A DNA stretch of 41,926 nt, from contig JAXDPC010000260.1 of NCBI GenBank assembly GCA_034668525.1, positions 1 to 41,926 on the forward strand. The letters run 5' to 3'. Shown here piece by piece: positions 3,526 through 26,870 of this stretch (positions within the stretch are counted from its first letter, which is position 1; each line of letters opens with the position of its first letter). A model generated the notes under the pieces. The model made no database searches and was not told where the DNA came from. It saw nothing but the letters and a program-made list of their open reading frames with translations. A program made the translations under genes and the position numbers. The DNA comes from Sphingomonadales bacterium. Its GTDB lineage: Bacteria; Pseudomonadota; Alphaproteobacteria; Sphingomonadales; Sphingomonadaceae.

Positions 3526-5220
3526 TCACCGGACCACGCGCCGCCCCTCGAGCTGCCGCCCTCCCTGGTGGATGACGAAGCGGTCCGCCCGGCCGTTTTC
3601 AGGGTGGAAGACGATCGTCGCGCCGACGCCCTGGACCTCGAACTCGGTGTCCGACCGGGCCCGGAGCGGGATTGCCGGCTGGCCCTCGAGCTGGATCGTC
3701 AGCAGGCCGTCGGCACCCATCGCGATTTCGGCGGCGGGGCCTTCGGTCGTGTAGCGGCCGACATAGGTTTCCAGGATCGCACGGCCGACCCGCACCGCCG
3801 CCGCTTCGGCCGCCGCGTCCCCGGTGCGGGTCGACAGCTCGGCCGCGTCCTCGCCGCCCTGGTGCATCTCCATGACGTGCGCGCCGTCCGGCCGCCGCTG
3901 GATGCGGAACCAGTTGAAGCTGTCGGGATAGAAGAAATGATCGTCGCCGGCGGCGAGCACCTCGCGCTCGGGCGAGCCGTCGTCGCGCATGGTGTAGAGC
4001 TTGCCATCACGCGCGAAGAAGCGGCGGTTCGCGCCGGTTTCCCCGATCCGGTAGAAGCCGAACAGCGGCGCCAGCGTCCCGGGATCGACCTCGGCGCGGG
4101 TGAAGGCGCGATAGGGCCGGCCGATCGCAAGCGCCGCGAGCCGCCTGGCGACGAGGCTCGGCGCCGTCGCCGGCGCGTCGCTGTTGGCGAGCACGGCGAC
4201 GAACACGTCCTCCGAGGGGATGTAGATGCTCTCCGTGTTGAAGCCGAAGATGGCGCCGCCATGCTCGATCGTCTCGCGCCCGCGCAGCCGGTCGAAGCGG
4301 ACGACGAAGCCGTAGGGATAGGTTCGGCCCCCGGACAGGCTCGCCGGCGCGGTCATGGCCGCGTAGAGCTGCGGGCTCAGCACCCGTCCGCCGTGGAGCG
4401 CGTGCGCCCACCGCGCGAGGTCGCCGACCGAGCCGACCAGGCCCCCGGCGCCGTGCGGCACGCTCATATGGATGCGCGGCGCCGGCACGACGCGACCATC
4501 GGCCACCGTATAGCCGCGCGCCATGCGCCGTCCGGATTCACGCTCGGCGCCGTAGCCGATGGACCGGATCCCCAGCCGCCCCGCCATGCGCTCGACCGCG
4601 CGATACCAGGGCCTGCCGGTGACCTGCTCGATGATCGCGCCGAGCAGGACGTAGCCCGAATTGTTGTAGGCCCAGGCCTCTCCGGGCGGCGTCCGCGGCG
4701 GCAGGTCGCGGACGAGCGCCATCATCTCTGCGGTGCTGTGCGGGCGGGCGGTATTGGCCTCGACCATCCAGCCGGGGATGGCGGTGTAGGACTGGATGCC
4801 CGACGTGTGATTGAGGAGCTGGCGCACCGTGACCGAGGCGGCCGGCTGCGGATAATCGGGGAAGAAACGCGAGATCGGATCGTCCAGCGATATCCGCCCC
4901 TGCTCGACGAGCTGGAGGATGGCCGCCGCGGTGAACTGCTTGGTGATCGAGCCGAAGCGGAACACAGTCTGCGGCCCGATCGGCGTCCGCGCCTCGCCGT
5001 CGGCGAGGCCGCGGCCTGCCGTGTACAGCGTGCGCCCACCCCGCGTGATGACGACGACGGCGCCCGGGCCGTCGGCGGGATAGGATGCCCGGAGGATCTC
5101 GTCCGCCCTCGCCCGCAGGTCGGCGGGCTGGGCCAGGACGGGTCCGGCGCCGAGGAAGGCCGTAAAGAGAGCGGCGAGACCGGCCAGCAGCCTGATCGTC
5201 AACGTGCGTGTCATTTCCAT
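3526..5220 (-). CDS. Exported serine hydrolase, beta-lactamase/class C (S12) family, with C-terminal DUF3471-like domains
   Basis: Signal peptide (...GPVLA); SxxK (FGSITKQF), LLNHTSG, YxN (YNNSGY), HGG triad; C-terminal LETYVGRY-type domain. Confidence 0.9.
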
Positions 5221-5229
5221 ATCTCCAAA

Positions 5230-5249
5230 TCTACTAAGCTCTTAGTAGA
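5230..5249. promoter_or_regulatory. BlaI-family operator (palindrome) upstream of the serine hydrolase
   Basis: TCTACTAAG-ct-CTTAGTAGA: 9-bp perfect inverted repeat with a TAC-N10-GTA core; the same core occurs upstream of the repressor gene. Confidence 0.8.
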
Positions 5250-5273
5250 AGATTGCAAAAAAGGGGATGGCGG

Positions 5274-6758
5274 TCATTGCGCCGCGAGGCTGTCGAGGCT
5301 CCACGCGCCGTCGTGCATTTCCGCCTCGACGGCGAACATCGCCCGTCCCCGAGGGCCGCCGAGCTCGATCTCGATATCGGCGTCGCCTTCGCTTCCGGTG
5401 AGGCGGACGTTGCCGTTGACCGGCCGCGACGTCGCGGCGGCCGGCGCTCCGACCCTGGCGACGACGTCGGGATGGCGCGCGATCAGCGCGACCAGCGCCC
5501 TGTGCTCGGGCATGTCGTTGACGTCCGGCAAAGCGGGCGGAGCCGGCGGCACGCCGAGCCGCGTGACTTCGGCGATCCAGCGGCGGACTCCGGCATCGAT
5601 CGGGCGGGCCTCGCCATTCTCGCTATAGGTCTCCGTCCGCCGGCCCTGCGCGTCGAGGCTGACGCGGTAGAAGCGCTGCCTGTCGATCCCGCTGGCGGTG
5701 ATCTGGCGATAATCGCCCGGGCGCAGCTCGCCCGCGGTCGAGGACTCGACCTGGAGATCGGGCATGCCGGCGACGCCGACCTGGGCGATCAGGACCAGCC
5801 CGGCGATGCTCAGGGCGCCGAGGCTGGCGAGCGCCCCCCAGCGTCCGCGCGACGGCGGTCCGGAGAGCAAGCGTGTGATCCGTTTCATGAGGGAACCTCC
5901 ATTGGCTGCAAGGGCGAGTCTGGGCGAGGGATGGCGGTCGCATTCGAGCGCCGCGAGGGCCTCGGCGAGGGCGATGGCGTCGCCGCAGGAGGCCACCGCG
6001 AGATCGTCGCAGGCATGCTCACGCTCCTGCCTGATCCGGCGGCCGAGCCACCAGATTGCGGGATGAAAGAAGAGCAGGCATTCGGCGACGCACTGAATGC
6101 CGTTCCAGAGCCAGTCCCGCCGCGCGATATGGGCGAGCTCGTGCGCGAGCAGCGCTTCGAGCTGCGCTGCCGGCGTCCGCGTCAGGAAGCCCAGCGGCAG
6201 CCAGATCGCCGGCCGCAGCAGCCGCGCCGCGAACGGCGTGACCACTTCCGCCGACAGGCGCACCGCGACCGAGCGGGCGATCCCCAACGCACGGCGGATT
6301 TCGTCCACCCGGCGAATCCATTCGGGTGGCAGCATCTCATGAGGGCGCCGCTCCATCCTGGTCAGGGCACGCAAGGCGGCGACATGGCGAACCAGCATCA
6401 GCATGACGCCGAGCACCCATGCCAGCACCACGAGCGGCGCTATCGCGGAGCTCTCCTGGACGAAGACGTTCGCCGCTGCGCTGAGATGCGGCGCCGTCAT
6501 CGCTGGCACGAGGCCGCCGCTCATCGATGCGCCAGGCTCGGCCCAGAAGCGGAGGAACTGGAAGGCGGGCACCAGCACCATCGCGAGCAGGAATGCCATT
6601 GCCACGGCGTGCCGGGCGCGGGCGCTGGCCCGGGCCATCGCCGTGAGCGCCAGGGCGCAAGCCAGGCCCAGCAGGCCATCCTGCCAGAGCGAATCGACGA
6701 GCGCCGAAGCCAGCGCGGGCGCAAATCCGTATTGGGCGGCGGATAAAGCCTCGGTCAC
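5274..6758 (-). CDS. M56-family (BlaR1/MecR1-like) membrane metallopeptidase antirepressor
   Basis: N-terminal TM helices; RPAIWLP, LLAHELAHIARRD (HExxH), FFHPAIWW, REHACDDLA, SLMKRITRLL; directly downstream of the BlaI-family gene with an overlapping start/stop. Confidence 0.92.
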   Translation of the reverse strand: MTEALSAAQYGFAPALASALVDSLWQDGLLGLACALALTAMARASARARHAVAMAFLLAMVLVPAFQFLRFWAEPGASMSGGLVPAMTAPHLSAAANVFVQESSAIAPLVVLAWVLGVMLMLVRHVAALRALTRMERRPHEMLPPEWIRRVDEIRRALGIARSVAVRLSAEVVTPFAARLLRPAIWLPLGFLTRTPAAQLEALLAHELAHIARRDWLWNGIQCVAECLLFFHPAIWWLGRRIRQEREHACDDLAVASCGDAIALAEALAALECDRHPSPRLALAANGGSLMKRITRLLSGPPSRGRWGALASLGALSIAGLVLIAQVGVAGMPDLQVESSTAGELRPGDYRQITASGIDRQRFYRVSLDAQGRRTETYSENGEARPIDAGVRRWIAEVTRLGVPPAPPALPDVNDMPEHRALVALIARHPDVVARVGAPAAATSRPVNGNVRLTGSEGDADIEIELGGPRGRAMFAVEAEMHDGAWSLDSLAAQ

Positions 6759-7144
6759 TTCCTGTCGCGCTTTGCTTTGGCCTCGGCGATCAGCTTCGCG
6801 ATGGCGTCCAGCTCGTCGGGGCTCGCCATCTCATCGTCGAGCGCGCGCTGCACCAAAGTCAGCGCCGATCCGGAAAAGGCGCGCCGCACCAGATCCTTGA
6901 GCAGCGAGGCCTGAACCACCGGCTCGGGCTGCGCGGGCCGATAGCTGTGGCTGCGCTCCGATTCGTCGCGGGCGACCAGCCCCTTCTCGGCCATGATCGT
7001 GAGCATCTTCAGCACCGTCGTGTAGGCGGTGTCCTTGCCGCGCGAGAGGATGCCGTGGACTTCGCGCACCGTCATCGGCGCCTTGCGCGCCCACAGCACG
7101 CGCAGGATCGCCAGCTCGCCTTCGGTCGGGTTCGGAGTGGACAT
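6755..7144 (-). CDS. BlaI/MecI/CopY-family transcriptional repressor
   Basis: PTEGELAILRVLW, TVREVH, AYTTVLKMLTIMAEKGLVAR, HSYRP, FSGSA: winged-helix penicillinase-repressor signature. Confidence 0.94.
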   Translation of the reverse strand: MSTPNPTEGELAILRVLWARKAPMTVREVHGILSRGKDTAYTTVLKMLTIMAEKGLVARDESERSHSYRPAQPEPVVQASLLKDLVRRAFSGSALTLVQRALDDEMASPDELDAIAKLIAEAKAKRDRK

Positions 7145-7163
7145 TCGCGCACCTTCTCTGATG

Positions 7164-7193
7164 TACGCCTGTCTTAGTACTAATAGATTAGTA
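7164..7193. promoter_or_regulatory. Tandem BlaI-family operators upstream of the repressor gene (autoregulation)
   Basis: TACTAAT-ag-ATTAGTA (7178-7193, perfect 7-bp arms) plus an overlapping imperfect TAC-GCCTGTCTTA-GTA (7164-7179). Confidence 0.75.
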
Positions 7194-8145
7194 GACCGTC
7201 AACCCCCATGCTGCGCAGCAGGGCCTCGCCGACCGCAGGGCGGAAATGGTCCCGATAGATCCACGCGTTTTCGGAGGCGGCCTCGGGGATGGGGATGCTC
7301 CCCGCCACGCCCGAAAAGTCGAGCAGGAGGATGCGGCATCGTTCGCCGGCCGCGGCGATTCGCCCGAGGTGCATGCGATAGGTGGCGACCCGCGTCCGCA
7401 CCCCCTCGCGCTCGCCTGCGCTGCCGAGCCGCTCCGGATCGAGCGGCGGCTCGTAGAGCAGGACCGTCGCCCCAGTCCGCGTACAGATTCGCGCCAGCCG
7501 CGCGAGCGCTTCGGGGAGATGGTCGCGCGGTGTTCCGCCCTCCGGGACGAATGCCGGAGTCGCGACGGGGCCCTTCCCTCTCGGCCCGGCCGGGACAACG
7601 ACATCGAGGAAGAAGTCGTCCCGCCCATGCTCATTCGAGCGGCCGAAGGCGTGGCCGAGGAGATGGAGCGAGACATGGGTCGTGCTGGTGGCGAGCAGAC
7701 GGTCGGCAGGTCCGGGCCAGGTCGCGGCGACCAGGCGGCGCCGGGCGGGTGGCAGAGCGAGGGCCTGGGGCAGCTCGATCAGCAAGGCGGCCGGAGGGAC
7801 GGGACGCGCTGCCGCGGCCTCGGCGACGCGCAGCACGTCATCCATCGTCGCCGCGGACTGGCCGGCATTGAAGATCCGGCGCGGATCCGTGCGGAAGCCC
7901 GCCTGGGTGCGCGACGTGCCGAGCAGCAGCACCGGCGCGGACGATCGCGCCACGGCATGGGCACGCGCGGCCGTCCCGGCGTCCGGAACGCGGTCGGCGA
8001 CGTCGTCGTGCGCCGGAGCGCGCAGCCGGGTCGAGCTGCCGACGCCCGCGGAATAGGGGTCCATGGCGAGGTTGAGGGCGGCGACTGCGCCCAGCAGGGC
8101 TGCCGCCGTCCCTACCGCCAGAGCGACATAGAGCGGGGCGCGCAC
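7180..8145 (-). CDS. Membrane-anchored SGNH-like protein (DltD/AlgJ-type MBOAT partner)
   Basis: N-terminal TM anchor ending NLAMDPY; LLLGTSR (block I Ser), IFNAG, C-terminal WIYRDHF (His); starts 1 nt after the MBOAT stop. Confidence 0.65.
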   Translation of the reverse strand: MRAPLYVALAVGTAAALLGAVAALNLAMDPYSAGVGSSTRLRAPAHDDVADRVPDAGTAARAHAVARSSAPVLLLGTSRTQAGFRTDPRRIFNAGQSAATMDDVLRVAEAAAARPVPPAALLIELPQALALPPARRRLVAATWPGPADRLLATSTTHVSLHLLGHAFGRSNEHGRDDFFLDVVVPAGPRGKGPVATPAFVPEGGTPRDHLPEALARLARICTRTGATVLLYEPPLDPERLGSAGEREGVRTRVATYRMHLGRIAAAGERCRILLLDFSGVAGSIPIPEAASENAWIYRDHFRPAVGEALLRSMGVDGLLIY

Positions 8146-8146
8146 C

Positions 8147-9706
8147 TCAGAACCGCGCGTAGATCGTGGTGCTGAGGTCGCCGTTCAGCCCCTGCATGAG
8201 GGCCGCCGCGATGAGCAGCCCGGCGACAGCGGCACGCAGCGCATCCATTCGCCAGCCGATCCTTGTCGCGCGGCCGGCAGGCCGCTGCGGCGCGCCGGGA
8301 TGATCGTAGAGGTCGAAGATCTGGATTGTATTGGGCGCGGCGAAGGCCAGCACGGTGGCGATCGCCGCGATGAGCAGGCCTGCGCCCGATACAGCGGCGG
8401 GCGCGTGCAGGATGCCGTCGAGCCCGCTGATCGCGCCGAGCTGCGGCAGCAGATTCTCTCCCGGAACGCCGCCGCCTAGTCCCGCCAGGCCACGGTAGAC
8501 GGCGCCCGCGGTGGCGAGGGTGCCGGAGCGGAAGAGGACGCAGATGAGCACCAGGCCGAGGAGGACGGTGACGCGCGCCAGCAGCCGGCGCGCCGGACCG
8601 CGGCCGCCCCTCGACGGCCAGCGCAGCTCCGCGAGCTGGTAGGCGACCGCGATCAGCCCGCCGACGAAGCCGCAGAGGATGTAGGTGGGCCGTGCGCCGT
8701 GCCACCAGCCGAACAGCGACAGGCTGAGCAGAGTCGCCGCCGCCGAAGCCTTGACCGCGCGGCTGGTGGCATTTCCTCTGACGTGCCGGCGCACCCAGCG
8801 AAACAAGGGCGCATAGACATAGGTGCGGATGAACACGACCAGCGAGATGTGCCAGCGGTCGAAATATTCGGTCGCCGAGCGCGCCTTGAGCGGCGAGTAG
8901 AAATTGATCGGCAGGCGCAGCCCGACCATCAGCCCGATGCCGAGCGCGATGTCAGAGATTCCGGAAAAGTCGAAATAGAGCTGGATCAGATAGCACCAGC
9001 CCGCGGCCCAGGCCTCGGCGACGCTGAGCGCGTGGCCGGCGGCCGCAGCGGCATAGATCGGATCGACGACGCCCCCGATCGGATCGGCGATCAGCAGCTT
9101 TTTGGCGAGCCCCACCGCGAAGACGGAGAGGCCCAGAGCGAGCGAGGCGGGCGCGATCGCCCCGGTCTCCAGCGCCTCATATTCCCGCGCGGCGTCGCGA
9201 TAGCGGAAGATCGGCCCGGCCACCATTTGCGGGAAGAAGATCGAATAGAGGGCGAAGCGCGGCATCTCGCGGATTCCGACCGGCTCCGCTTCGGCGGGCG
9301 TGAGATCGGCGATCCAGGAGATCTGCTTCAGGATGAAGAAGGAGAGGCCGAGCGGAAGGCCGGTCTGGATCAGGCCCGCAGCCGGCTCCGCGCCGGCGAG
9401 ATCGGCCGGCGAAGCCGCATATTTGTACGCTGCGAGCACTGCGATGTTGAGCAGGATCGTTCCCGCCGCGATCCAGATCCGGCCCCGCCCCTTGGCCCCG
9501 GTCACCGCCGCGCCGGCCGCGAAATTGACCAGGACCAGGCTCGCGACCAGCGGCGCGTGGCGCGGATCGGCGAGCCAGTAGAAGAGAGCCGAGGCCGCGA
9601 GCAGCACCGCGATCCGCGCGCCGCCGCCGCGGTTGCGCAGCAGCCAGTAAGCGGCGAGCAGCGCCGGCAGGAAGAATGCGACGAACTTGGGATCGTAGGT
9701 CAGCAC
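8147..9706 (-). CDS. MBOAT-family O-acyltransferase (AlgI/DltB-like)
   Basis: LPLGLSFF, FFPQMVAGPI, GLAKKLLIAD, QLYFDFSGISDIALG, NFYSP, RWHISL, WHGA (catalytic His); C-terminal IYARF. Confidence 0.93.
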   Translation of the reverse strand: MLTYDPKFVAFFLPALLAAYWLLRNRGGGARIAVLLAASALFYWLADPRHAPLVASLVLVNFAAGAAVTGAKGRGRIWIAAGTILLNIAVLAAYKYAASPADLAGAEPAAGLIQTGLPLGLSFFILKQISWIADLTPAEAEPVGIREMPRFALYSIFFPQMVAGPIFRYRDAAREYEALETGAIAPASLALGLSVFAVGLAKKLLIADPIGGVVDPIYAAAAAGHALSVAEAWAAGWCYLIQLYFDFSGISDIALGIGLMVGLRLPINFYSPLKARSATEYFDRWHISLVVFIRTYVYAPLFRWVRRHVRGNATSRAVKASAAATLLSLSLFGWWHGARPTYILCGFVGGLIAVAYQLAELRWPSRGGRGPARRLLARVTVLLGLVLICVLFRSGTLATAGAVYRGLAGLGGGVPGENLLPQLGAISGLDGILHAPAAVSGAGLLIAAIATVLAFAAPNTIQIFDLYDHPGAPQRPAGRATRIGWRMDALRAAVAGLLIAAALMQGLNGDLSTTIYARF

Positions 9707-9713
9707 CGCGCGC

Positions 9714-11399
9714 CTATCCGGCCTTTTTCTCGATCAGCACGTCGTCGACGAGCAATGCGTCGAGGCCCGTGGTCGTGAGGATGGCGAGCGCGTCCTCGAC
9801 GGTGTGGACGATCGGCTTGCCCATCACGTTGAGGCTGGTGTTGAGCAGGATCGGCACGCCGCTCGCCTGCTCGAAATCGGCGAGCAGCGCGCACAGCCAC
9901 CTATTGGATTCCCCGCTCACCGTCTGCAGGCGTCCGGTGCCGTCCGCATGGACGACCGCCGGCACCCGACCCGCTTTGTCGGGCCGCCAGCGGTGGGCGA
10001 ACGACATATAAGGCGATGGCCCGGCACCCTCGAACCACCGATCGGCTTCGGCCTCGGCGACGATCGGCGCGAACGGCCGGTAGGGTTCGCGTCCCTTCAC
10101 CTCGCGGTTTAGCCGGTCCTTCATTCCCGCGGGCCGGGGATCCGCGATGATCGAGCGGTTGCCCAGCGCGCGCGGGCCGAACTCGGCACGCCCCCGCATC
10201 ACTCCGATCACGGCGCCGCCGGCGAGCAGCTCCGCGACCGCGCGGGTGTCGCCCGCGGTCTCGGTCACCTTGGCGAAGCCGCCGTGCCTGACCGCGCCGG
10301 CGAGCGCCTTCGGGTCCGGCTCGCTGCCCAGATAAGGGCTGGGGCAGTGCGGCAGCGGCGCGCCTCCCATGTCCTCCTGCCACGCCAGCAGGGCGGCGCC
10401 GGCGGCGTTGCCGTCGTCTGCCGGCGCCGGGGGAACGTGGACCGCCCCCAGCGAATATCTCTCGCGCAGCGTGCCGTTATAGGAAGAGTTGAGCGCGCAG
10501 CCGCCGCCGAGCAGGAGATTGTCCCCCGGCGCGCAGGCGATTGCGCCGACCACCTCGTCGGCGAGCGCCGCATGAGCGGCCTGGCCGCTGGCGGCGAGGT
10601 CCGCCGCCGCCATCACGTCGTCGGACGGCGCGCGCGACCAGGGCGCCAGCGCGGCTCCCGCCTCCTGCCAGCTCGAGGCGTCGCCGGTCCGCGGGCGGCC
10701 GTTCTCGATCCAGACGAGCCGCTTCAGCGTGTCGACCGCTTCGGGCACCGGGCGGCCGAAAGCGGCGAGGCCCATCACCTTCCACTCCTCGCCGCGGCGC
10801 CAGTCGAACCCGCAGCGGCCGGTGACGAAGCCGTAGAGATAGCCGAGGCTGCCCGGCCCCCAGGACCGCCAGCGCCGCGCCAGCCGCCGCTCCTGCATCG
10901 CATAGAGGCTGACCGAGCCGACCTCCCCCTCGCCGTCGACGATCAGGCAGTGCGCGTCCTCGAACGGCGAGGAGGCGGCCGCATAAGCGGCGTGGCAGAG
11001 ATGATGGTCGTAGGCGCGACGCTCGACCGGGACCCCCGGCGCGATGCGCGGCACGTTGAGCCCGAAATGCTCGAAGGCCCGCCGCTGATGCTCGCGCAGC
11101 CAGAAGGCGTTGACGGGATCGATGATGTCGGCGGAGAGCGCGCCGTCCTCGCCGGGGGACTGCTCCCAATGCTTCACCCGGGCCCAGCTCGCCGCGACGA
11201 CGAACCTGGTCGCGTCGGCGCAATATCGCGACAGCGGCCCGGCGAGATGGTCGAAATGGTCGGGCGCCGCGCCCCACGCGCGCTTGTCCTGCAGATAGCG
11301 CTCGGTCGCTTCGGCGAACAGCAGCCGCCCTTCGGCATCGACGATCGCTAAGGCCGGATCGTGTCCGGTAACTGCGAGGCCGATATAATAGGTGCTCAT
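9714..11399 (-). CDS. Carbamoyltransferase, NodU/CmcH/TobZ family
   Basis: GHD, ER..K, HHLCHA, DGEGE, SLGYLY, EWKVMGLAAFG, GGGCALN, DDGNAAGAA, EFGPRALGNRSI, REPYRPFAP, HADGTGRLQ, LNTSLN; ATG 11399 overlaps the ACP stop. Confidence 0.95.
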   Translation of the reverse strand: MSTYYIGLAVTGHDPALAIVDAEGRLLFAEATERYLQDKRAWGAAPDHFDHLAGPLSRYCADATRFVVAASWARVKHWEQSPGEDGALSADIIDPVNAFWLREHQRRAFEHFGLNVPRIAPGVPVERRAYDHHLCHAAYAAASSPFEDAHCLIVDGEGEVGSVSLYAMQERRLARRWRSWGPGSLGYLYGFVTGRCGFDWRRGEEWKVMGLAAFGRPVPEAVDTLKRLVWIENGRPRTGDASSWQEAGAALAPWSRAPSDDVMAAADLAASGQAAHAALADEVVGAIACAPGDNLLLGGGCALNSSYNGTLRERYSLGAVHVPPAPADDGNAAGAALLAWQEDMGGAPLPHCPSPYLGSEPDPKALAGAVRHGGFAKVTETAGDTRAVAELLAGGAVIGVMRGRAEFGPRALGNRSIIADPRPAGMKDRLNREVKGREPYRPFAPIVAEAEADRWFEGAGPSPYMSFAHRWRPDKAGRVPAVVHADGTGRLQTVSGESNRWLCALLADFEQASGVPILLNTSLNVMGKPIVHTVEDALAILTTTGLDALLVDDVLIEKKAG

Positions 11400-11653
11400 C
11401 GTCGCGAGAGGCTCGCGGACACGCTGTCGGCAACACGGTTTACGGTGCGGCATTCGAACAGCAGCACCGGCTCGATCTCCACGCCGAAGCGATCCTCCAG
11501 CTCGCCGCTGATCAGCACCGCATCGATCGACCTGATCCCGAGCTCGATCAGGTCCGCGTCGCGATCGATTCCGGAAGGGTCACAGCCGATCCTTTCGGCG
11601 AGCCGTTCCAGCAGATAGGCGATGAGTTCGTCGCGCGCGGCGGCGTCGGTCAC
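11396..11653 (-). CDS. Acyl carrier protein (FAAL/PKS-type)
   Basis: 85 aa, acidic; LIELGIRSIDAV (phosphopantetheine Ser); ELEDRFGVEIEPVLLFECRTV. Confidence 0.88.
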   Translation of the reverse strand: MTDAAARDELIAYLLERLAERIGCDPSGIDRDADLIELGIRSIDAVLISGELEDRFGVEIEPVLLFECRTVNRVADSVSASLSRR

Positions 11654-11667
11654 TTCTTAAATTCCTC

Positions 11668-12741
11668 TCAGGTCAGGCGGCAGACGAAGTCGATCGGGCT
11701 CGTCACCATCACGTAGGGCTCGAAGCCCGACGGCGGCCAGAGCGGGGCAAAGCGCGGGAAGCGGCGGACCAGCGCCGTCAGGGCCTCTGCGATGATCAGG
11801 CGGGCGAGCTCGGCTCCGAGGCATTTGTGGACGCCCGCGCCGAAAGCGACGTGGTTGATCGATCCGGCGACCGACGCACCGCCGAGCGGACACGCACCGC
11901 CGAGCGCCTCCGCGCTTGCCGGACCGATCGGCACCTCGACCCGCGCTGCCGGCCCGGCCTCGCCACGCCGCTCGCGGATCAGGAACTGGAAGGAGGTGCT
12001 CGCCGCGATCAGTCGTTCCACCGCCGCCATCCGCCGCTCCGGTTCGAGCAGGGCGGACCTGCGCTCGGGCGGAAGGCTCGCGACGGTCATGATCGTGTTG
12101 GAAAGCGTGTGCCGGGTGACGCTGCTCGCTCCGTAGAGGCTCATGGCGAGCCAGATACGGTCCTCCGCCGAAAGCCCATCGTCGTTCTGATGAAGGAAGG
12201 TCGGGAGACCTTCACTTTCGGGCGGCGGCGAAGCGCAGGCGGCGTCGGCGACAGCCGCGGCGAACTCGCCCAGCGCCGTCTCGATCCGCGGCAGCCGGCG
12301 CATTGGCGGAAGCGGCTCGGTCAGCCATCGTGCCTCGTCGGTCCACAGGTCGAAGTCTTCGCGTCCCGCGGCGGGCAGGCCGATCATCCTGCAGACCACG
12401 TCTCCCGCGACGATGCGCGCGAAATCGGCAACCAGGTCAGCTTCCGTCCGACCGTCGAGCAGCGCGACTGCGTCTTCGGCACAGCGCGCGATTTGCGGCT
12501 GCCACATGGCGAGGATCGACGGCCGGAAGAAGGCAAGGGACGCGCGGCGCAGCTCGATGTGCCGCTCCCCGCCGAGAAAGAAGAGCAGCCGTTCGACCTG
12601 CTCACGGATGTTCGGGATCGGCGTGGCGCTGGCGGCCTCCAGCTGGCCAAAGAAGGCCGGCAGATCGATGACATCCGACGAGCGGCTGCGGAGCACCGAC
12701 GCGCAGGCGTTGACGTCCATGGTCCGGGCGGCCGCGGTCAC
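11668..12741 (-). CDS. Cytochrome P450, short and divergent
   Basis: Heme-thiolate motif HVAFGAGVHKCLGAELAR; H..LRR; ADLVADFA...VVCRMIGLP. Likely GTG start at 12741 overlapping the FAAL stop (ATG 12720 is an alternative). Confidence 0.8.
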   Translation of the reverse strand: MTAAARTMDVNACASVLRSRSSDVIDLPAFFGQLEAASATPIPNIREQVERLLFFLGGERHIELRRASLAFFRPSILAMWQPQIARCAEDAVALLDGRTEADLVADFARIVAGDVVCRMIGLPAAGREDFDLWTDEARWLTEPLPPMRRLPRIETALGEFAAAVADAACASPPPESEGLPTFLHQNDDGLSAEDRIWLAMSLYGASSVTRHTLSNTIMTVASLPPERRSALLEPERRMAAVERLIAASTSFQFLIRERRGEAGPAARVEVPIGPASAEALGGACPLGGASVAGSINHVAFGAGVHKCLGAELARLIIAEALTALVRRFPRFAPLWPPSGFEPYVMVTSPIDFVCRLT

Positions 12742-14411
12742 GACGCCTCCGCCATCGCGGCAGCGCCGGCCCAGAGATCGCGCGCTGCGGAACGGCGGAT
12801 CTTTCCGCTGGTCGTGCGGGGAAGGCTCCCGGGGCGCACGATGTGCAGCTCGGCCAGCGTGACCCCGAGGTCGCGGGACAGTGCCGCCCGGGCGCAATGC
12901 AGGGACTCGCGCTCGCCGAGCTGCACCGGCACGCCGCGGCGCCGCTCGACGAGCAGAACGATTGGTCCGCCTTCCTCCTCCGGCCCCTGGAAAGCCGCGG
13001 CCGCGTCCGGGTTGACCTGCGGCAGAGCGGCCGTCGCGATCCGCTCCACATCGACCGCGGCGATATTGACTCCCCCCGCGATCAACACATCCTTGATTCG
13101 ACCGGTGACGCTGAGGCGGTCGCCGTCGATGCGCCCGATGTCGCCCGTGCGCAGCCAGTCGCGGCCGTCGTCCGGCTTCATGCGGGCCGCGAAGACCTCG
13201 CGGGTCGCTTCCTCGTCGGCGAAATAGCCGCCGGCAACGGAGGTCCCGGCGATCCAGATCTCACCTTCCTCGCCCGCCGCGGCCAGCCGCCCGTCCGCCC
13301 CGACGATGCGGATCGTGGCACAGCTCGCGGCATCGAGGTAGCAGGGCGCGCGCTCGCCGGCACGAGGCAGCTCTGACTCCGAGTGCGACGCCGGGCGGTG
13401 CGCACCAGCGGCATAGAGCGTCGTCTCCGCCAGCCCGTAACAGGTGAAAACTGCATCGGGCCTGAGGCCCGCGCGCGCGAAGCGGCGCCGAAAGGCGGCG
13501 AGCGTGGAGGAGAAAACCGGCTCCGCGCCGCAAAACGCACTCCGCCACGACGACAGGTCGAGCGTATCGACCACTTCGTCGGGAACGCGGCTGGCGCACA
13601 GGTCGAGCGCGAAAGCCGGCGCGCCGCTGGTCGTCGCGCGGTAGCGGCTGATCGCCGTCAGCCACCGCGCCGGCCGCTGGACGAATGCCAGCGGCGACAT
13701 GTGGACCGTCTCGAGACCGTTGACGAGCGGGGTCAGGACCTTGCCGATGAGGCCCATGTCGTGATGATGCGGCATCCAGTTGACCAGCAATTCGCGCTCC
13801 CCGCGCTGGCCGACGTCCATGCCCGACGAGGAGGCGGCAATGTTGGCGAGCAGGCAGCGGCTGTGGAGAATGACCCCGCGCGGCACGCCGGTCGTTCCGG
13901 ACGTATATTGGAGGATGGCCGGCTCGCGCAGGTCGCGGTCGAGCCCGGGGCAGTGCAGCGGCGGGTCCGCATCGGCAAGGGCAGCCACGTCGGAGATCGG
14001 CACGCAGGACAGCGGACCGTGCACCCCCCCGCCGCGCCTCAGCCGCTCGGCGATGCGCGGCGATGCGATGACGATGCTCGGGCGACACGCCTCGGCGATC
14101 CTCTCCAGCCGGTCGAGCGACGCGCCGGGCCGCGGCTCGGGCGCAGGGACGGCGACGACGCCGGCATAAAGGCATCCGACGAGGGCGCCGAGAAAATCCG
14201 GGCCGGTCTCCATGACGATCAGCGCCCTGCAGCCGACGAGCTTTCTCTCGATCAGACCGCCCGCGATGCGGCGCGCGGCGGAATCGATCTCCTCGCAGGT
14301 CAGCGCCGCGGCCTCTTCCTCGCCGTTGCGGAGGTACCGCATCAACACCCGATCGGGGGAGGCGGCGAGCTGGTTGTGAATGGCGGAAGCAATCGATCGG
14401 TCTGTACGCAT
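12738..14411 (-). CDS. Fatty acyl-AMP ligase (FAAL)
   Basis: GCLYAGVVAVP, LQYTSGTTGVPRGV, WMPHHHDMGLIG, FVQRPARWL, LDLSSWR, GAEPV, CYGLAETTL, WLRTGDIG, GRIKD, LPRTTSGKIRR. Confidence 0.9.
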   Translation of the reverse strand: MRTDRSIASAIHNQLAASPDRVLMRYLRNGEEEAAALTCEEIDSAARRIAGGLIERKLVGCRALIVMETGPDFLGALVGCLYAGVVAVPAPEPRPGASLDRLERIAEACRPSIVIASPRIAERLRRGGGVHGPLSCVPISDVAALADADPPLHCPGLDRDLREPAILQYTSGTTGVPRGVILHSRCLLANIAASSSGMDVGQRGERELLVNWMPHHHDMGLIGKVLTPLVNGLETVHMSPLAFVQRPARWLTAISRYRATTSGAPAFALDLCASRVPDEVVDTLDLSSWRSAFCGAEPVFSSTLAAFRRRFARAGLRPDAVFTCYGLAETTLYAAGAHRPASHSESELPRAGERAPCYLDAASCATIRIVGADGRLAAAGEEGEIWIAGTSVAGGYFADEEATREVFAARMKPDDGRDWLRTGDIGRIDGDRLSVTGRIKDVLIAGGVNIAAVDVERIATAALPQVNPDAAAAFQGPEEEGGPIVLLVERRRGVPVQLGERESLHCARAALSRDLGVTLAELHIVRPGSLPRTTSGKIRRSAARDLWAGAAAMAEAS

Positions 14412-14626
14412 ACTCGTCCTTTGGACAGCGGTCGTTACAGACCGACGGTGACTCCGAACAGGTCCAAAATGAAACCTATGTTTAGACGATCGGCGGAGCG
14501 CCTTCGGCTTCCCGGTGACTCGGCACCGGTCGGCGGCTCGGCAGGACGAACCGTGCGCTCGCCTTGGAGTCAGGCGCTTGCGTTCGCCGCTCTGCCTCTC
14601 TAGCCGTCGATGGCGAGCGAGGACCG

Positions 14627-16138
14627 ATGACGGATAACAGAGTTAGGAAAGTCGTCGTCATCGGCGGCGGGTCGGCCGGCTGGATGAGCGCGGCCGCATT
14701 GGTGAACACGCTTCGCGGCGGCTGTGAGATCCACCTCGTCGAGAGCGACGAGATCGGTATCGTCGGCGTCGGAGAAGCGACGATCCCTCCCATCAAACTG
14801 TTCAACAACGCCCTCGGGATCGAGGAGAACGACTTCGTCCGCGCCACCCAGGGAGCGTTCAAGCTGGGTATCCAATTCGTCGACTGGGCACGGCTCGGCC
14901 ACGTCTATTTCCACCCGTTCGGCCACATCGGCGCACGCTTCGACAGCGTCCCGCTGCATCAATATTGGCTTCGCGCCCACGCGCGCGGCGACCAGTCGCG
15001 GATCGAAGATTATTCTATGGCCTGGGCCGCGGCCGCGCGCGGCCGGTTCGCACCGCCGGTGGCCGACCAGAGGCTAATCCAGTCGACCCACAGCTATGCC
15101 TATCATTTCGATGCGGGCCTCTATGGCCGCTATCTCCGAGCCTATTCGGAGAAGCGCGGGGTGATCCGCCACGAGGGAAAGGTCGTCGACGTCTCTCTGC
15201 GTGGCGAGGACGGTTTCATCGAAAGCGTGGAGCTTGCGGACGGCCGGGTCGTCGAGGGCGATCTGTTCATCGATTGCTCGGGCTTTCGCGGGCTTCTGAT
15301 CGAAGGCGCGCTGCAATCCGGATACGAGGATTGGAGCCGCTGGCTGCCCTGCAACCGCGCGCTCGCCGTCCCCTGCGCCCATGGCGACAGCGAATTCACG
15401 CCCTACACCCGTTCCACCGCGCGAAGCGCCGGATGGCAGTGGCGGATTCCCCTGCAGCACAGGATCGGCAACGGCTACGTCTATTCGAGCGGCTTCATCT
15501 CCGACGATGAGGCCGCGGCGACCCTGATGGCCAATCTGGACGGGGAGCCCCTCGCCGAGCCGCGTCCCCTTCGATTCACCAGCGGCCGCCGCAGGATCTT
15601 CTGGAACCGCAACTGCATCGCTATCGGCCTCGCCGCCGGCTTCATGGAGCCGCTGGAATCGACCAGCCTCCATTTGGTTCAGAGCGGAATTACCCGTCTC
15701 CTTGCGCTGTGGCCCGACCTCGATTTCAACCCGCTCGGCGCGGCCGAGTACAACCGCCTCACGATCGAGGAATATGAGCGCACCCGCGACTTCATCATCC
15801 TCCATTATCGCGCCACCGAACGGGACGACAGCGAGCTGTGGCGCTATTGCCAGGCCATGACCGTGCCCGACCAGCTTCAGTACAAGATGGACCATTTCCG
15901 GGCCAACGGCAGGCTGGTGATGGAAGGTTATGAGCTGTTTCAGAACCCGTCCTGGATCGCGGTCCATCTCGGACAGTTCGTGACGCCCGAACGTTATGAT
16001 CCGATCGTGGACGAAAGACCGCACGTCCAGGCAGAGCGTATCCTCGCGGACCTGCGCCGCGCCGTCGACGAGGCCGCCGAGGCGATGCCCACGCACCGCG
16101 ACTATATCGAGAGGCATTGCCGGGCCGCGGCCCCTTGA
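14627..16138 (+). CDS. Flavin-dependent halogenase, tryptophan-halogenase family
   Basis: [22 protein letters not shown] (catalytic Lys), YAYHFDA, FIDCSGF, WQWRIPL (WxWxIP), [10 protein letters not shown]. Confidence 0.92.
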
Positions 16139-16150: not shown

Positions 16151-16984
16151 TCAGGCGCTGACCGCTTTGCGGCCGACCGCCACCCAATACGGCGAGCCCT
16201 CGCGGAAGCGGATCCCATCGAGGCCGCTGCGCCGCATCATCGCTTCGATCGCGGCGCGCGAGAAGCGCTGCTCGAGCGGTGTCCCGAACCGGTCGAGGGC
16301 GGCCATGCGCATGTTGCCGAGACGGGCATCGCGGTACGAGCCGAGCGGCACCCGCTCGGCGTCGCCGCCGGCGCGCTCGACCAGCCGGGCGAGCCTGCTG
16401 AGCGGCCAGTAGATCGAGACGGCGATCGCGTCGCAGGCGTGGCTGCGCAGGCGATCCGGAAGCCGCGATATGGCGCGGCGGCCCATGTCCGCGGCCCGCC
16501 AGGCAGCGCGAAACCAGAACGGCCGGTTCTCGAAGTCGTAATATAGGTAGAGCAGGAAGGGCGCGCCCGGCTTGAGCTTGGCGACGCAGCGACGCAGCGC
16601 AGCTTCGGTGTCCGGAACGTGGTGGAGGACGCCCAGCGAATAGCCGAAATCCTGGCTGCCGTCGGCTAAGGGGATATCGTCGACTGCAGCGAGGTGGAAG
16701 TCGACATTGCTCCAGTCCGCCATCGCGCGGCGCGCGACTGCCAGTCCGCTCGGCGACGGATCGAGGCAGTGGAGCCGGCCGACCCGCGGCGCGACGTGGA
16801 CCGCCAGTCGCCCCTGGCCGCAGCCGAGATCGAACCCTTCGGCATCCGCCAGCTCGTCGAACGGGAAAAGGGAGAAAAGCTGCTCGAAGCCCCGCCGCGA
16901 CCGCTCCGGATTGTCGGTGCCGCCGGTTCGGGCTCTCCATTTCGCATCGAAGGCACGCGCGGTCGCTTCGTCGATATTGCTCAC
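16151..16984 (-). CDS. Class I SAM-dependent methyltransferase
   Basis: Motif I FDLGCGQG, LDPS, DFGYSLGVLHHVPD, LKPGAP. Confidence 0.9.
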   Translation of the reverse strand: MSNIDEATARAFDAKWRARTGGTDNPERSRRGFEQLFSLFPFDELADAEGFDLGCGQGRLAVHVAPRVGRLHCLDPSPSGLAVARRAMADWSNVDFHLAAVDDIPLADGSQDFGYSLGVLHHVPDTEAALRRCVAKLKPGAPFLLYLYYDFENRPFWFRAAWRAADMGRRAISRLPDRLRSHACDAIAVSIYWPLSRLARLVERAGGDAERVPLGSYRDARLGNMRMAALDRFGTPLEQRFSRAAIEAMMRRSGLDGIRFREGSPYWVAVGRKAVSA

Positions 16985-17036
16985 CGCGCCGGCTTAGCGC
17001 GGCCGGCGGGACGGACCAAGCGGCGGGGCAACGGGT

Positions 17037-18410
17037 TCAGGCGCGCGGGCTGCCGCCGAGCGCCTTGTAGAGATCGATCGCGGCTTCGAGCCGTTCCTGG
17101 TGCGCGACTGCGCGGGCGTCCTCGGCGCGAACCAGCAATTGCTCGGCGTCGAGCACCTGCTGGAGATCGGCCTCGCCCTCGAGATACTGGCGCCTGGCAA
17201 GACGGGCGGTGACCGTCGCCTCGGCCACGATTTCGACCAGCAGCGCCTCGCGGGCGCGGGAATGGGCGACCGCGGCGAGGCCGTTCTCCGCCTCGCCCAG
17301 AGCCGAGAGGAGCGCGCCTCGATAGAGCTCGACGCTTTCCGCCTGCTCGGCGGCGACGGTGCCGAGCTCGCCGCGCAGGCGACGGCGGTTGAAGATCGGC
17401 GCCAGCAGGTCCGAGCCGATGCGGAGGGTCGCCCCGATCGGACCGCCGAGCGTTGCCGCCTGGCCGAGCGCGCTCGCACTCAGACGAATGCGCGGCAGGA
17501 AGGCGGCACGGGCGCGGGTCACGTCGCCTTCCGCGGCGGCGATCCGCGCCTCCGCGGCGCGCACGTCGGGTCGGCGGACGAGAAGCTCGCCGGGTTGCAC
17601 CTGAGCGATCTCGGGAACGACGAGGTTCGCCAGCCGCCCTCGCGGCGCCGCAAAGAGTGGCGCCTCCTCGCCGACCAGGACGGCGAGAGCATTCCGGGTC
17701 CGCGCCAGCGCTTCGACCAGCCGCAATCTGTCGGCCTCGAGCTGGCGCACCTGGATGGTCTGCAATCCGGTGTCCACGCGGGTCGCGTCGCCCAGCCTCA
17801 GCCGGACGCCGATGATACGCTCCAGCTCGCGCGCCTGCCCGATATTGCGGTCGAGCAACGCGATCCTGTCCGCCAGGGCCGCGTGCTGGACATAAGCGCG
17901 CGCGACTTCGGTCTCGATCACCAGAGCGGCGGCGTCCCGATCGAAGGCCGCGGCGGCGAGACGGGCGCGGGCGGCGCGTCGGCCGGCACGCTCGCCCCCG
18001 AACAGGTCGAGATCGTAGGAGACGTCGAGTCCGGCGAAGCCCTCGCTGAAGTTGAAGGCGCCGCCGCCATTATTGTCGGTGTCCGTGCCGCTGAGGCCGG
18101 CGGAGCCGGTCACCACCGGCAGCATCGAGGCACGCGCGATGCCGAGCTGCGCCCGCGCCCTCTGGACTCGCGCCGCCGCGGCGGCGACGTCGGCATTGCG
18201 CGTGGCTGCGAGAGCGAGCAGCCGCTGCAGCTCGGGATCCCCGAACGCATCGCCCAGCGCCGGCTGGTGCGTCGGCGCCCCTGTCGCCGTCCCTTCGCCG
18301 CTCCAGCTCCGCGACTGCAGCTCCGGCCGCGGCCGCGTCTCGACCGAGGGCGCGCACGCCGAAGCGAGCGCTGCGAGCAGGGCGAATGCGGGCAGGCGGT
18401 GCGCAATCAT
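17037..18410 (-). CDS. Outer-membrane efflux lipoprotein (NodT/OprM/TolC family)
   Basis: Lipobox LASAC; FGDPELQRL..A..RNADV, SYDLDLFG, LLVRRPDVRAAE, AAFLPRI, IDLYKALGG. Confidence 0.93.
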   Translation of the reverse strand: MIAHRLPAFALLAALASACAPSVETRPRPELQSRSWSGEGTATGAPTHQPALGDAFGDPELQRLLALAATRNADVAAAAARVQRARAQLGIARASMLPVVTGSAGLSGTDTDNNGGGAFNFSEGFAGLDVSYDLDLFGGERAGRRAARARLAAAAFDRDAAALVIETEVARAYVQHAALADRIALLDRNIGQARELERIIGVRLRLGDATRVDTGLQTIQVRQLEADRLRLVEALARTRNALAVLVGEEAPLFAAPRGRLANLVVPEIAQVQPGELLVRRPDVRAAEARIAAAEGDVTRARAAFLPRIRLSASALGQAATLGGPIGATLRIGSDLLAPIFNRRRLRGELGTVAAEQAESVELYRGALLSALGEAENGLAAVAHSRAREALLVEIVAEATVTARLARRQYLEGEADLQQVLDAEQLLVRAEDARAVAHQERLEAAIDLYKALGGSPRA

Positions 18411-18435
18411 CGCATCAGCCGATAGCGGGCGTAGG

Positions 18436-18461
18436 TTAAAATGGGTTGAAGCGGAATTAAC
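18436..18461. promoter_or_regulatory. Overlapping CtrA-like boxes in the divergent OMF/HlyD promoter region
   Basis: TTAA-N7-TGAA (18436-18450) and TTGA-N7-TTAAC (18446-18461), compared with the CtrA consensus TTAA-N7-TTAA. Confidence 0.5.
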
Positions 18462-18520
18462 CCGACTTTCAGTGATTTCCGATAGCCGCCGCTCAAGGGA
18501 AAAGGGCCGCGCAGCTTCGA

Positions 18521-19753
18521 ATGTCCACGCAATTGTTCCGTCAGGAAGTGATCGAGGCGAGCCGCGACCGGCTGGCGGGCGCGGTCGTCGCCGCGGTGCC
18601 GCCGCGCTCGCGGCTCTACACGATGCTCCTGCTCGGCTTCGCGGCGGTGGTCGTCGCCATCCTCATACTAGGCCAATATGCCACCAGCGCTCGCGTGCGC
18701 GGCATCGTCGCCTACGACGCCGGTATCGCGCGGGTCTATCCGGCGAGCCCGGCCGAGATCCGTGCCATCCACGTCCGCACCGGCCAGCGGGTCCGCGCCG
18801 GCGACCCGCTCGTCACCATCTCGCTCGCCCAAGGCTCGAACGGCGTCAACGCGCAGCTCGCCCAGATCGACCGGCAGGACGCCGAGCTCGCCCGGCAGCA
18901 GACGCTCGCCGGCGAGATCGGCGCCACCGAAGCGGGGGGGCTCAGCGAGCAGCGCGCCGGCCTCCGTGCCGCGATCGCCTCGCTGGAGCGCCAGCGCGCG
19001 ATCGCCGCAGGACAGATCACGCTCGCGGAGTCGGCCACCCGCCGCGCCGTCCAGCTCGCCAGCGAGGGCGCCGGCACCCAGCGCCAGGTCGAGGACGCAC
19101 GCGCCACATTGCTGGCGCGCCGGGCCGAGCATGAGGGGCTGAACGAGCGGCTGATCGCGCAGCGCGAGCAGCTTCGCGCCATCGACAATCTGGTCGCCGG
19201 ACGGACACTGGAGGCGAGCCGCAGCGGATCGGTGCTCGGCGCCCAGCGCGCGGCTTTGGCCGAGCAGCGCGAGGCCCTCCTCCGCACCCACCAGCTTACT
19301 CTCACCGCCCCGATCGACGGCGAGGTCGGCGACGTGCCGGTCGAGGTCGGCCAGCGCGCGCGCCCCGACGCGTCGCTGGTCACGATCGTCCCGGCCGGGA
19401 GCCGCCTCGAAGTCTGGGTCTACGCCCCGTCGCGGGCGATCGGCTTCGTCCGCCCGGGCCAGGAGGTGCGGCTGCTGTTCGACGCCTTCCCCTACCAGAC
19501 CTACGGCGCCGGCCGCGGCCGCGTCACCGAAGTCTCCCGCGTGCCGACTGAGCCCTCAGCGATCGATGCTCAGCTCGGCATCGAAGAGCCCGTTTTCCGC
19601 ATCCGCGTCGCAATCGACCAGCTCGCGCCCCGCGCCAGCGCCGACCAGCGCCAGCTCCGCCCCGGCATGACGCTCTCCGCCAATCTCGTGCTCGAGCGGC
19701 GCAGCCTCTGGCAGGTCCTCTTCAACCCCTTCCTGGCGACGGTCGAGCAATGA
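18521..19753 (+). CDS. HlyD-family membrane fusion protein (CvaA/RaxA-like)
   Basis: N-terminal LFRQE, one TM helix, coiled-coil, LTAPIDGEV, SRAIGFVRPGQEV.L.FDAFPYQTYG, EPVFRI, LRPGMTLSA. Confidence 0.93.
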   Translation: MSTQLFRQEVIEASRDRLAGAVVAAVPPRSRLYTMLLLGFAAVVVAILILGQYATSARVRGIVAYDAGIARVYPASPAEIRAIHVRTGQRVRAGDPLVTISLAQGSNGVNAQLAQIDRQDAELARQQTLAGEIGATEAGGLSEQRAGLRAAIASLERQRAIAAGQITLAESATRRAVQLASEGAGTQRQVEDARATLLARRAEHEGLNERLIAQREQLRAIDNLVAGRTLEASRSGSVLGAQRAALAEQREALLRTHQLTLTAPIDGEVGDVPVEVGQRARPDASLVTIVPAGSRLEVWVYAPSRAIGFVRPGQEVRLLFDAFPYQTYGAGRGRVTEVSRVPTEPSAIDAQLGIEEPVFRIRVAIDQLAPRASADQRQLRPGMTLSANLVLERRSLWQVLFNPFLATVEQ

Positions 19754-22814: not shown

Positions 22815-22926
22815 GAAACCCCTCCCTCGACGCCGCCGCATCATGCCGGCGCGGCCGTTTCCGGGTCGCAGCCATAGCCGCCGGAGCGGTAAGGAAGTCT
22901 TACGCCCGCGCGATTGCGGGAAACGC

Positions 22927-22951
22927 CCGGGGCCGCACGTGGCGGCCCCGG
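22927..22951 (-). terminator. Stem-loop just downstream of the precursor peptide gene (weak terminator or mRNA stabiliser)
   Basis: CCGGGGCCGC-acgtg-GCGGCCCCGG, 10-bp perfect stem; on the minus strand it is followed by GCGTTT. Confidence 0.6.
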
Positions 22952-22960
22952 TGGATCGGC

Positions 22961-23143: not shown

Positions 23144-23258
23144 TTTCCGAGCTCCCTCTTCGGACATGACGCCGACCAGCGGCGCCGTGCGGACTAAATA
23201 CCATCGCAGGACCGCCCGTTCCCGCGCAAAACAGGGTGAACGCGTCCCAAAACGGGAT

Positions 23259-26262: not shown

Positions 26263-26334
26263 CCAGAGCTACCGTAGTCCCGCCATGAGCCGCTCGGTCC
26301 GGGGATCGGGCACGAATGCTCGAGGAGCGAAGAC

Positions 26335-26853: not shown

Positions 26854-26870
26854 CCAGGAGCCGAACGATC

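Follow-up and report, generated by a model that had tools for sequence, protein, structure and literature searches.

The window analyzed here, 41,926 nt of contig JAXDPC010000260.1 (assembly GCA_034668525.1; forward-strand numbering), carries an operon of six genes encoding a fatty acyl-AMP ligase (FAAL), a cytochrome P450, an acyl carrier protein (ACP), a carbamoyltransferase (CT), an MBOAT (membrane-bound O-acyltransferase), as well as an SGNH-fold protein. We favor, with moderate confidence, a reading in which a fatty acid is loaded onto the ACP, oxidized, O-carbamoylated, and exported onto a surface acceptor, probably a glycan. The genes, their order, their conserved catalytic residues, and the presence of one off-loading system per locus were observed directly. 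A sequence-only reading of the same DNA had proposed the series load, hydroxylate, carbamoylate, and export, which survived all of our computational tests, with the gene order conserved and docking of the CT on the ACP predicted. One correction to that reading is that the MBOAT–SGNH pair is one of three interchangeable off-loaders. The core of FAAL, P450, ACP, and CT would make an acyl group tethered to the ACP, from which it can be removed by transferases of three types, with the P450 step coming first and carbamoylation an add-on.

Of the 532 stretches confirmed when GTDB contigs were scanned with the CT as lead, the best 80 were analyzed. P450, ACP, and CT occur in this order in 33 of these 80 loci, with a FAAL upstream within the locus in 31, and the recurrence exceeds chance. 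The gene set is therefore conserved elsewhere, a point on which the sequence-only reading had hinged, but the conserved unit is the FAAL–P450–ACP–CT core and not the MBOAT–SGNH pair. In a P450-led metagenome scan, whose queries were 14 C-terminal P450 domains and which was hence biased toward tandem forms, 27 of 28 loci matched the core order as far as their contigs extend; the remaining one is a lone fragment adjoining a Tn3 transposase. The six-gene form was seen in three phyla (Pseudomonadota, Bacteroidota, and Verrucomicrobiota), and a single metagenome-assembled genome (MAG) from the Myxococcota carries the core. Occurrence of the set is uneven: of 150 other genomes of the genus, 7 had the P450, as did 3 of 400 from the phylum, and the CT was found (at E 1e-100) in 2 of 300 genomes of the family, one of them outside the clade, as well as in two plasmid records.

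In a FastTree phylogeny of 101 CTs (54 from operons and 47 others), all 54 operon CTs fall on one side of a branch with SH support of 100, and none of the 47 others lies inside. No locus with a clade CT lacks the P450 (54/54), and the CT travels with FAAL, P450, and ACP genes, not with sugar genes. A natural form without the CT also exists. The complete genome G402 has FAAL–P450–ACP–MBOAT–SGNH with the clade CT nowhere in the genome (its sole CT scores 328 bits vs. 750 for a clade member), which argues that the P450 step is independent of the carbamoyl group. As a separate observation, frameshifts in L012 (5847-13183) split the FAAL, the second P450 domain, and the MBOAT, reflecting either assembly error or decay.

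The off-loader was scored among 53 loci with both the P450 and a clade CT, of which 37 were kept for having at least 4 kb upstream and at least 3 kb downstream. Each of the 37 has exactly one off-loader, none having two or zero: MBOAT plus SGNH in 21, a tetratricopeptide repeat (TPR) protein with a VexE-like acyltransferase domain in 9, and a Cys-thioesterase in 7. The 16 loci left out comprise 10 with MBOAT plus SGNH, 1 with an MBOAT at the contig end, 1 with a thioesterase, and 4 unscored; among the last, L082 has MBOAT plus SGNH, two end at the CT, and L071, with no off-loader recognized, ends 1.2 kb past the CT. On the CT tree the off-loader labels require at least 12 changes, and its starred branches force changes (7 MBOAT, 4 VexE-like, and 3 thioesterase). 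One off-loader per locus together with at least 12 swaps argues that the core yields one ACP-tethered product, which is removed by differing transferases. A FAAL is present in 36 of the 37 loci (it is absent near L069), and the translational coupling of ACP and CT persists through all three off-loader types.

The TPR protein owes its assignment to NCBIfam, where its C-terminal domain matches the VexE model NF011721 (2e-14 to 4e-19, far below the cut-off). This domain has an invariant His81 and Asp145, 64 residues apart, and VexE itself is described in the available part of PMC9597891 as an acyl-ACP–dependent TPR-LPLAT acyltransferase of a capsule glycolipid with an H466/D532 dyad. The resemblance to the Vi capsule β-hydroxyacyltransferase thus lies in the TPR architecture, the VexE-matching C terminus, and the His/Asp pair of the proteins that replace MBOAT–SGNH in 9 of 37 loci. 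The scores set it apart, as does the fact that Vi biosynthesis genes were not seen beside the TPR gene; the window has no VexE-like gene. A PDB profile search with the TPR C terminus gave no match, and two other identities were rejected: Lip_A_acyltrans, with a Pfam E value of 0.058 in only 1 of 6 sequences, and an LpxL type, with an hhalign E value of 0.0034 but a probability of 9% (controls, 0.35-0.38). In genomes G559 and G653, a short P450 stands beside a VexE-like gene, with FAAL, ACP, and clade CT absent from the stretches examined. The short P450 adjoins a VexE-like TPR protein in L138 (465-6745) and L139 (7892-11292), where the surroundings hold neither a FAAL nor an ACP nor a clade CT; ahead of it in L138 come another P450, a radical SAM gene, and a methyltransferase.

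The thioesterase-type off-loader has a Cys (GGNCQG) at the nucleophile position and an extra C-terminal domain, and its fold is backed by weak Pfam matches and Atlas neighbors. The sequence-only reading had noted that polyketide synthase, nonribosomal peptide synthetase (NRPS), and thioesterase genes are absent, which holds for the window operon but not across its relatives, some of which use thioesterase-like or NRPS-fused forms. In Shewanella waksmanii (L014, 12150-21431), the core precedes an NRPS of 3094 aa, which combines the same Cys-thioesterase with condensation, adenylation, methyltransferase, carrier, sulfotransferase, and TPR domains. The thioesterase-type version was also seen on a 110-kb Phaeobacter plasmid (L136, 9828-16689); the annotation there calls the tandem P450 a hypothetical protein. 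A B12-binding radical SAM gene accompanies 16 of the 37 well-flanked loci, on either side or strand, and is absent from the window; it is possibly a C-methyltransferase for the chain. These genes are of the DUF4070 type and match no NCBIfam family at cut-off (for example, L009 at 4315-5880, L011, L017, L059, L065, and L079). On its flanks, the Polyangiaceae core (L071, 2750-12890) has a TPR protein, an AurF-like di-iron N-oxygenase, and a gene with a polyketide-cyclase domain.

In the window, the off-loader begins with an MBOAT of the AlgI/PatA type (PF03062, 8e-23; DltB model, 2e-38, below its cut-off). Its catalytic His336 is conserved in all 21 aligned MBOATs, and its C terminus ends in a candidate acyl-shuttle hexapeptide (Table 1). 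Among 31 relatives, 27 have Tyr at position −4 and F or L at −1, and all have a Tyr within the last five residues. According to the available part of PMC12148441, PatA auto-acylates the Tyr of an FXYXXF motif and then passes the group to a Ser of PatB. The other five operon genes have clear Pfam matches, whereas the last has none in Pfam, NCBIfam, or a PDB profile search, and one of its relatives is named SGNH/GDSL by its source. The predicted model (pLDDT 83) found SGNH/GDSL proteins as top matches in both fold searches (Foldseek, best E 9e-4; VIA, Z 13.2, rmsd 3.8, 184 residues aligned), with near-tied VIA rows that include PatB (11.6) and DltD (10.5). There is an N-terminal helix at residues 3-28, and G76, S78, W295, and H300 are invariant in 22 of 22 homologs, S78 being the block I Ser and H300 the block V His of the SGNH superfamily; in block V, the Asp of the DxxH motif is present in 18 of 22 relatives, the window copy reading YRDH with Tyr297. 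At the level of fold, the last gene would encode a membrane-anchored SGNH-fold partner of the adjacent MBOAT.

A glycan is the probable acceptor because of the families involved, the VexE-like swap, and the polysaccharide genes that adjoin the operon in four loci (L010, L013, L018, and L047). The acceptor is the weakest link of the reading. Lipid A was considered and is unlikely in this host: PF03279 occurs in 0 of 21 genomes of the host genus and order. Sphingomonads are not known to have lipopolysaccharide.

The P450 belongs to a short, noncanonical family, often tandem-fused and closest to P450BioI, which the sequence-only reading had missed. The window protein (Pfam p450, 1e-6) keeps the heme Cys307, but its I-helix reads GASSVT, with no acid–Thr pair, and its K-helix ERLIA, with no ExxR. 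Its predicted model (pLDDT 93.6) is best matched by P450BioI–acyl-ACP (Z 38.0, rmsd 2.6, 337 residues aligned), followed by CalO2 (36.2) and then 34.6. The best profile match is also BioI (1e-49; next, 4e-46), against which the meander is gapped. BioI cleaves chains, and the substrate of CalO2 is carrier-bound. The likeness to P450BioI (CYP107H1) would extend to an ACP-bound fatty acyl substrate, but the operon P450 is only ∼19% identical, is shorter, lacks ExxR and the acid–Thr pair, comes with its own FAAL and ACP, and in its family often has two P450 domains per chain. Of the 33 genome loci, 16 have a single P450, 2 have two P450 genes, and 15 have a fusion of ∼730 aa that joins two domains, with I-helices that differ between the tandem domains. 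Among their 50 intact domains, only 2 retain ExxR, one in L015 and the other the N-domain of L007, and the acid–Thr pair is confined to L015. There, the slot is filled by a canonical P450 with D-T and ExxR, which suggests ordinary oxygenation.

A wider family set was assembled from the best 150 hits of a profile search of 1.84 billion representatives plus a second set. At a threshold of 213 bits, chosen afterwards just above the first canonical sequence, 112 full-length domains lie above and 63 below. All 112 have the heme Cys and 107 a C-helix His; ExxR is present in 3 and an acid–alcohol pair in 1, where it is out of register. By comparison, 54 of the 63 lower-scoring domains have ExxR and 38 the acid–alcohol pair, although 9 of the 63 are also without ExxR. 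The stretch from K-helix to Cys has a median of 66 residues in the family (range, 49-83) vs. 72 and is more variable. The family spans ∼100 clusters at 50% identity, tandem fusions included, without the two textbook motifs. The +16 Da shift that the sequence-only reading expected from hydroxylation is likely but not safe, since the P450 is noncanonical.

The CT is a class III enzyme of the TobZ/NodU/GdmN type (Pfam Carbam_trans, N-terminal 1e-25 and C-terminal 7e-64; NCBIfam NodU model, 7e-54). Like TobZ, NodU, GdmN, and NovN, it has a Kae1-like domain followed by a YrdC-like one and conserves the metal ligands and, probably, the catalytic His. The metal ligands of GdmN are H133, H137, D156, and D333 (PMC9633730, available part); in the operon CT, the residues aligned with these are H132, H136, D155, and D328, all of which are invariant across 20 of 20 sequences. 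His13 is invariant in all 101 CTs, the alignments to GdmN stopping short of its N-terminal catalytic His, H27. Operon CTs differ from these enzymes in forming a separate clade with a surface motif, RxWRSWGPGS, that is predicted to bind the ACP, whereas the available part of the GdmN source describes free substrates. A model of the CT–ACP complex, built from custom alignments, scored an ipSAE of 0.69, the best of three controls scoring 0.00; of solved complexes, 116 of 157 come up to the mark for such scores, as against 2 of 215 mismatched pairs. Runs share at least 72% of contacts, with partner pLDDT of at least 84. The predicted contacts pair CT residues 159-160 and 175-182 with ACP residues 43-54, the helix after Ser42. 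R178 is present in 54 of 54 operon CTs vs. 6 of 47 others and R175 in 53 of 54 vs. 8 of 47; W177 and W180 each occur in 52 of 54 and are outside the five commonest residues in other CTs. The CT is thus predicted by this model to bind the operon ACP through clade-specific residues.

The adenylating enzyme (Pfam AMP-binding, 7e-56) has FAAL domains as its best PDB matches (7r7g, 1e-97) and FAAL models as its best NCBIfam matches, all below their cut-offs. The available part of PMC8460268 lists the CoA-excluding residues, FAAL-specific helix, and pocket proline of EcFAAL. At a constant offset of 12, W212, P214, M219, S239-P247, and F267 correspond to EcFAAL W224, P226, M231, 251-259, and F279, as mapped by spacing rather than by superposition. 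There is a Pro-rich loop near residues 88-94. The FAAL-specific insertion is present but falls ∼14 residues short of that in 7r7g, and its length is similarly reduced in the family as a whole. Bulky canonical-pocket and CoA-blocking features predict a FAAL that rejects CoA and loads the ACP. The ACP (PF00550, PP-binding, 6e-16) has G39, S42, V46, E53, and P62 invariant in 30 of 30 operon ACPs.

From these features we infer both the chemistry and the acceptor. The FAAL would adenylate a fatty acid and load it onto Ser42 of the ACP. The BioI-like P450 would oxidize the ACP-bound chain, most likely to a hydroxyl, and two-domain relatives would oxidize it twice. The CT, docked on ACP helix II as predicted, would O-carbamoylate this hydroxyl with carbamoyl phosphate and ATP as donors. 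By analogy to PatA and DltB, His336 of the MBOAT would shift the acyl group from the ACP thioester to the enzyme's own Tyr516. Ser78 of the SGNH protein would then accept it and acylate a periplasmic or surface polymer.

Several points weigh against this reading. The loci are not independent, several being near-identical, and the counts overstate their independence. The CT–ACP controls were unrelated proteins rather than other ACPs. The P450 family lacks both motifs that normally serve O2 activation and fold locking, the lead of BioI is small (172 vs. 161 bits; Z 38.0 vs. 36.2), and a motif scan of 53 loci gave no credible ferredoxin or rubredoxin, the matches looking like shadow-frame peptides. 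At the export end, the window SGNH copy is without the DxxH Asp, most loci, the window included, have no glycan genes alongside, and the thioesterase-type variants (7 of 37) may release a free molecule, so that a glycan acceptor is not universal.

One alternative we regard as rather unlikely. The same cytoplasmic steps would end in a small molecule that is set free, be it a carbamoyloxy fatty acid, a lactone, or a cyclic carbamate, and the MBOAT–SGNH pair would serve to release it across the membrane, matching on the export side what the thioesterase variant does. The scarcity of flanking glycan genes fits it, as do the esterases among the top matches of the SGNH model and the thioesterase-fold protein that replaces MBOAT–SGNH, in one case inside an NRPS (L014). 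Transfer to a polymer is favored by the MBOAT, which retains the Tyr shuttle typical of polymer acylation, and by the VexE-like swap, which brings in a sugar acyltransferase family; the Cys nucleophile and extra C-terminal domain of the thioesterase-like protein would also fit transacylation. A more elaborate proposal, which goes further than the preferred reading and which we consider improbable as a whole, is that of a widespread cassette whose P450, of a new class lacking the O2-activation pair and ExxR, runs without a dedicated redox partner (peroxide-driven or substrate-assisted). The P450 and a carrier-docking CT would build an acyl group of unusual kind, perhaps a cyclic carbamate and, in some hosts, C-methylated, which three unrelated transferase families would fix to the cell surface.

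It is doubtful, too, that the P450 is something other than a simple hydroxylase, performing BioI-type chain cleavage, desaturation, epoxidation, or H2O2-driven chemistry while the CT acts on another group, for example the hydroxyl carried by a FAAL-loaded 3-hydroxy fatty acid. Such chemistry is suggested by the depletion of the acid–alcohol pair (1/112 vs. 38/63) and ExxR (3/112 vs. 54/63), the redox partner not found in 53 loci, BioI as the closest structure, and the differing I-helices of tandem domains. It is countered by the canonical P450 in the L015 slot and by the clade CT always occurring with the P450 (54/54 loci). Moreover, some ordinary monooxygenases, P450cin and CYP157, lack the Thr or ExxR.

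Quite improbable is that the CT works apart from the acyl chain and carbamoylates a sugar acceptor or precursor, the other genes delivering a hydroxy fatty acid to the same glycan. NodU and TobZ are indeed sugar carbamoyltransferases, the former with the model match at 7e-54, and G402 has lost the CT while keeping the rest. Yet the coupling of ACP and CT is kept through all three off-loader types, ACP binding is predicted to involve clade-specific CT residues, and no glycosyltransferase is among the conserved neighbors. The CTs of L068 (2810-13841), L075, L037, and L039 lie outside the clade, and their neighbors include a redox enzyme of heme-oxygenase-like type together with an adenylating enzyme. 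Further neighbors are either KAS III and a class I tRNA-synthetase homolog or else a canonical P450 with a luciferase-like monooxygenase and a TonB receptor, and the loci look like separate uncharacterized clusters.

The preferred reading places the operon next to two known kinds of system. With Dlt (DltA/C/B/X/D) it shares an adenylating enzyme, a dedicated carrier protein, an MBOAT with a catalytic His, a Tyr shuttle, and a membrane-anchored SGNH protein. It differs from Dlt in having a FAAL, to judge by the best matches of the adenylating enzyme, and no D-Ala ligase; in its two tailoring enzymes between loading and export; in a shuttle fused to the MBOAT, with no separate DltX (gaps of at most 14 nt leave no room for one inside the operon); and in its hosts, which are of Gram-negative phyla, the Dlt acceptor being teichoic acid. 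With PatA/PatB and AlgI/AlgJ it shares an MBOAT of ∼500 aa, a C-terminal FXYXXF-like hexapeptide, and an SGNH gene directly after. In contrast to these, it includes an ACP and a FAAL with CoA-rejecting features, the available part of PMC12148441 describing MBOAT/SGNH pathways other than Dlt as carrier-free with an acyl-CoA donor, and at the level of sequence its SGNH protein matches neither PatB nor AlgJ. The operon works like Dlt, as the sequence-only reading had held, but it belongs neither to Dlt (no D-Ala ligase and no DltX) nor to PatAB (it is carrier-fed); it is a PatA/Dlt hybrid with the Tyr shuttle fused to the MBOAT.

That reading knew of no described pathway with this combination, and none was found in the literature searched, which omitted most subscription papers and all supplements. 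The operon would combine carrier-bound tailoring in the style of natural products with acylation of the envelope and would fill a slot that the available part of a 2025 mechanism paper calls empty, that of an MBOAT–SGNH pair that is carrier-fed and has its Tyr shuttle fused. A surface substituent not yet described, a carbamoyloxy fatty acyl group, is predicted for cultured, nonpathogenic strains, and the operon offers a carbamoyltransferase predicted to act on ACP-bound chains. Carriers in culture include Brevundimonas alba DSM 4736, Sphingopyxis witflariensis DSM 14551, and Stappia indica SBBC 49. The core consists of four soluble proteins and is directly testable.

Table 1. Coordinates of the operon genes and of the features named in the text
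Feature	Position	Strand	Details
FAAL	14411-12738	minus	557 aa
P450	12741-11668	minus	GTG start; 357 aa
ACP	11653-11396	minus	85 aa; 14-nt gap after P450
CT	11399-9714	minus	ATG start; 561 aa; ATGA overlap with ACP
MBOAT	9706-8147	minus	519 aa; 7-nt gap after CT
Last gene, SGNH-fold	8145-7180	minus	321 aa; 1-nt gap after MBOAT
ACP phosphopantetheine Ser42	codon 11528-11530	minus	
Clade-specific CT motif RxWRSWGPGS	10848..10877	minus	Residues 175-184; predicted contact with ACP helix II
C-terminal acyl-shuttle hexapeptide TIYARF of MBOAT	8150..8167	minus	Tyr516; FXYXXF-like, first position T, not F
CT-less operon, L133 (G402:C1)	7025-12614		Natural form without carbamoyltransferase

Open reading frames (ORFs) and coordinates bore out the six minus-strand genes and all five junctions of the sequence-only reading. 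The FAAL/P450 junction is a GTGA overlap, with GGAGG just upstream of the P450 start and an in-frame ATG at 12720. GC at third codon positions is 0.80-0.88 across all six genes, and the operon GC (0.705) is close to that of the genome (0.691), giving no sign of recent foreign origin. A promoter and terminator scan gave signal at chance level. The genome has a single copy of the P450, ACP, CT, and SGNH genes and, elsewhere, one further MBOAT and one further FAAL-like gene. Its nearest named relatives are Allosphingosinicella MAGs, with CT identities of 88-92%.

Upstream of the operon, positions 16151-23167 look like a RiPP or bacteriocin locus: a peptide-export cluster with a C39-peptidase ABC transporter, HlyD, an outer-membrane efflux protein, a methyltransferase, a ∼324-aa unknown gene (21870-22844), and a small Gly/Ser/Lys/Arg/Cys-rich ORF (22961-23167, minus strand), whose leader we take to be double-glycine-like. 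That the operon lipidates this peptide is highly improbable: a precursor-like ORF and exporter do lie 4-9 kb upstream, but among 139 loci close exporter homologs occur only in L002 and L003, the closest relatives (with a weak C39 match in L098), a distribution that fits inherited synteny. The exported peptide that the sequence-only reading had entertained as acceptor is unlikely on the same ground. The cluster genes recur in L002 and L003, and the exporter and methyltransferase, confined to L001-L003, were rejected as parts of the system. So were a tryptophan-halogenase-family gene on the opposite strand between methyltransferase and FAAL (14564-16138), which is in none of the other loci, is absent at the matching place in L002 and L003, and has a 55% paralog on contig C79, and the genes that come immediately downstream of the operon (3526-7144), which encode a BlaI-type repressor, a BlaR1/M56 peptidase, and a member of the beta-lactamase family and were again found only in L001-L003. 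Chaperone-usher pilus genes (PapD_N and usher) lie at 26316-29898.

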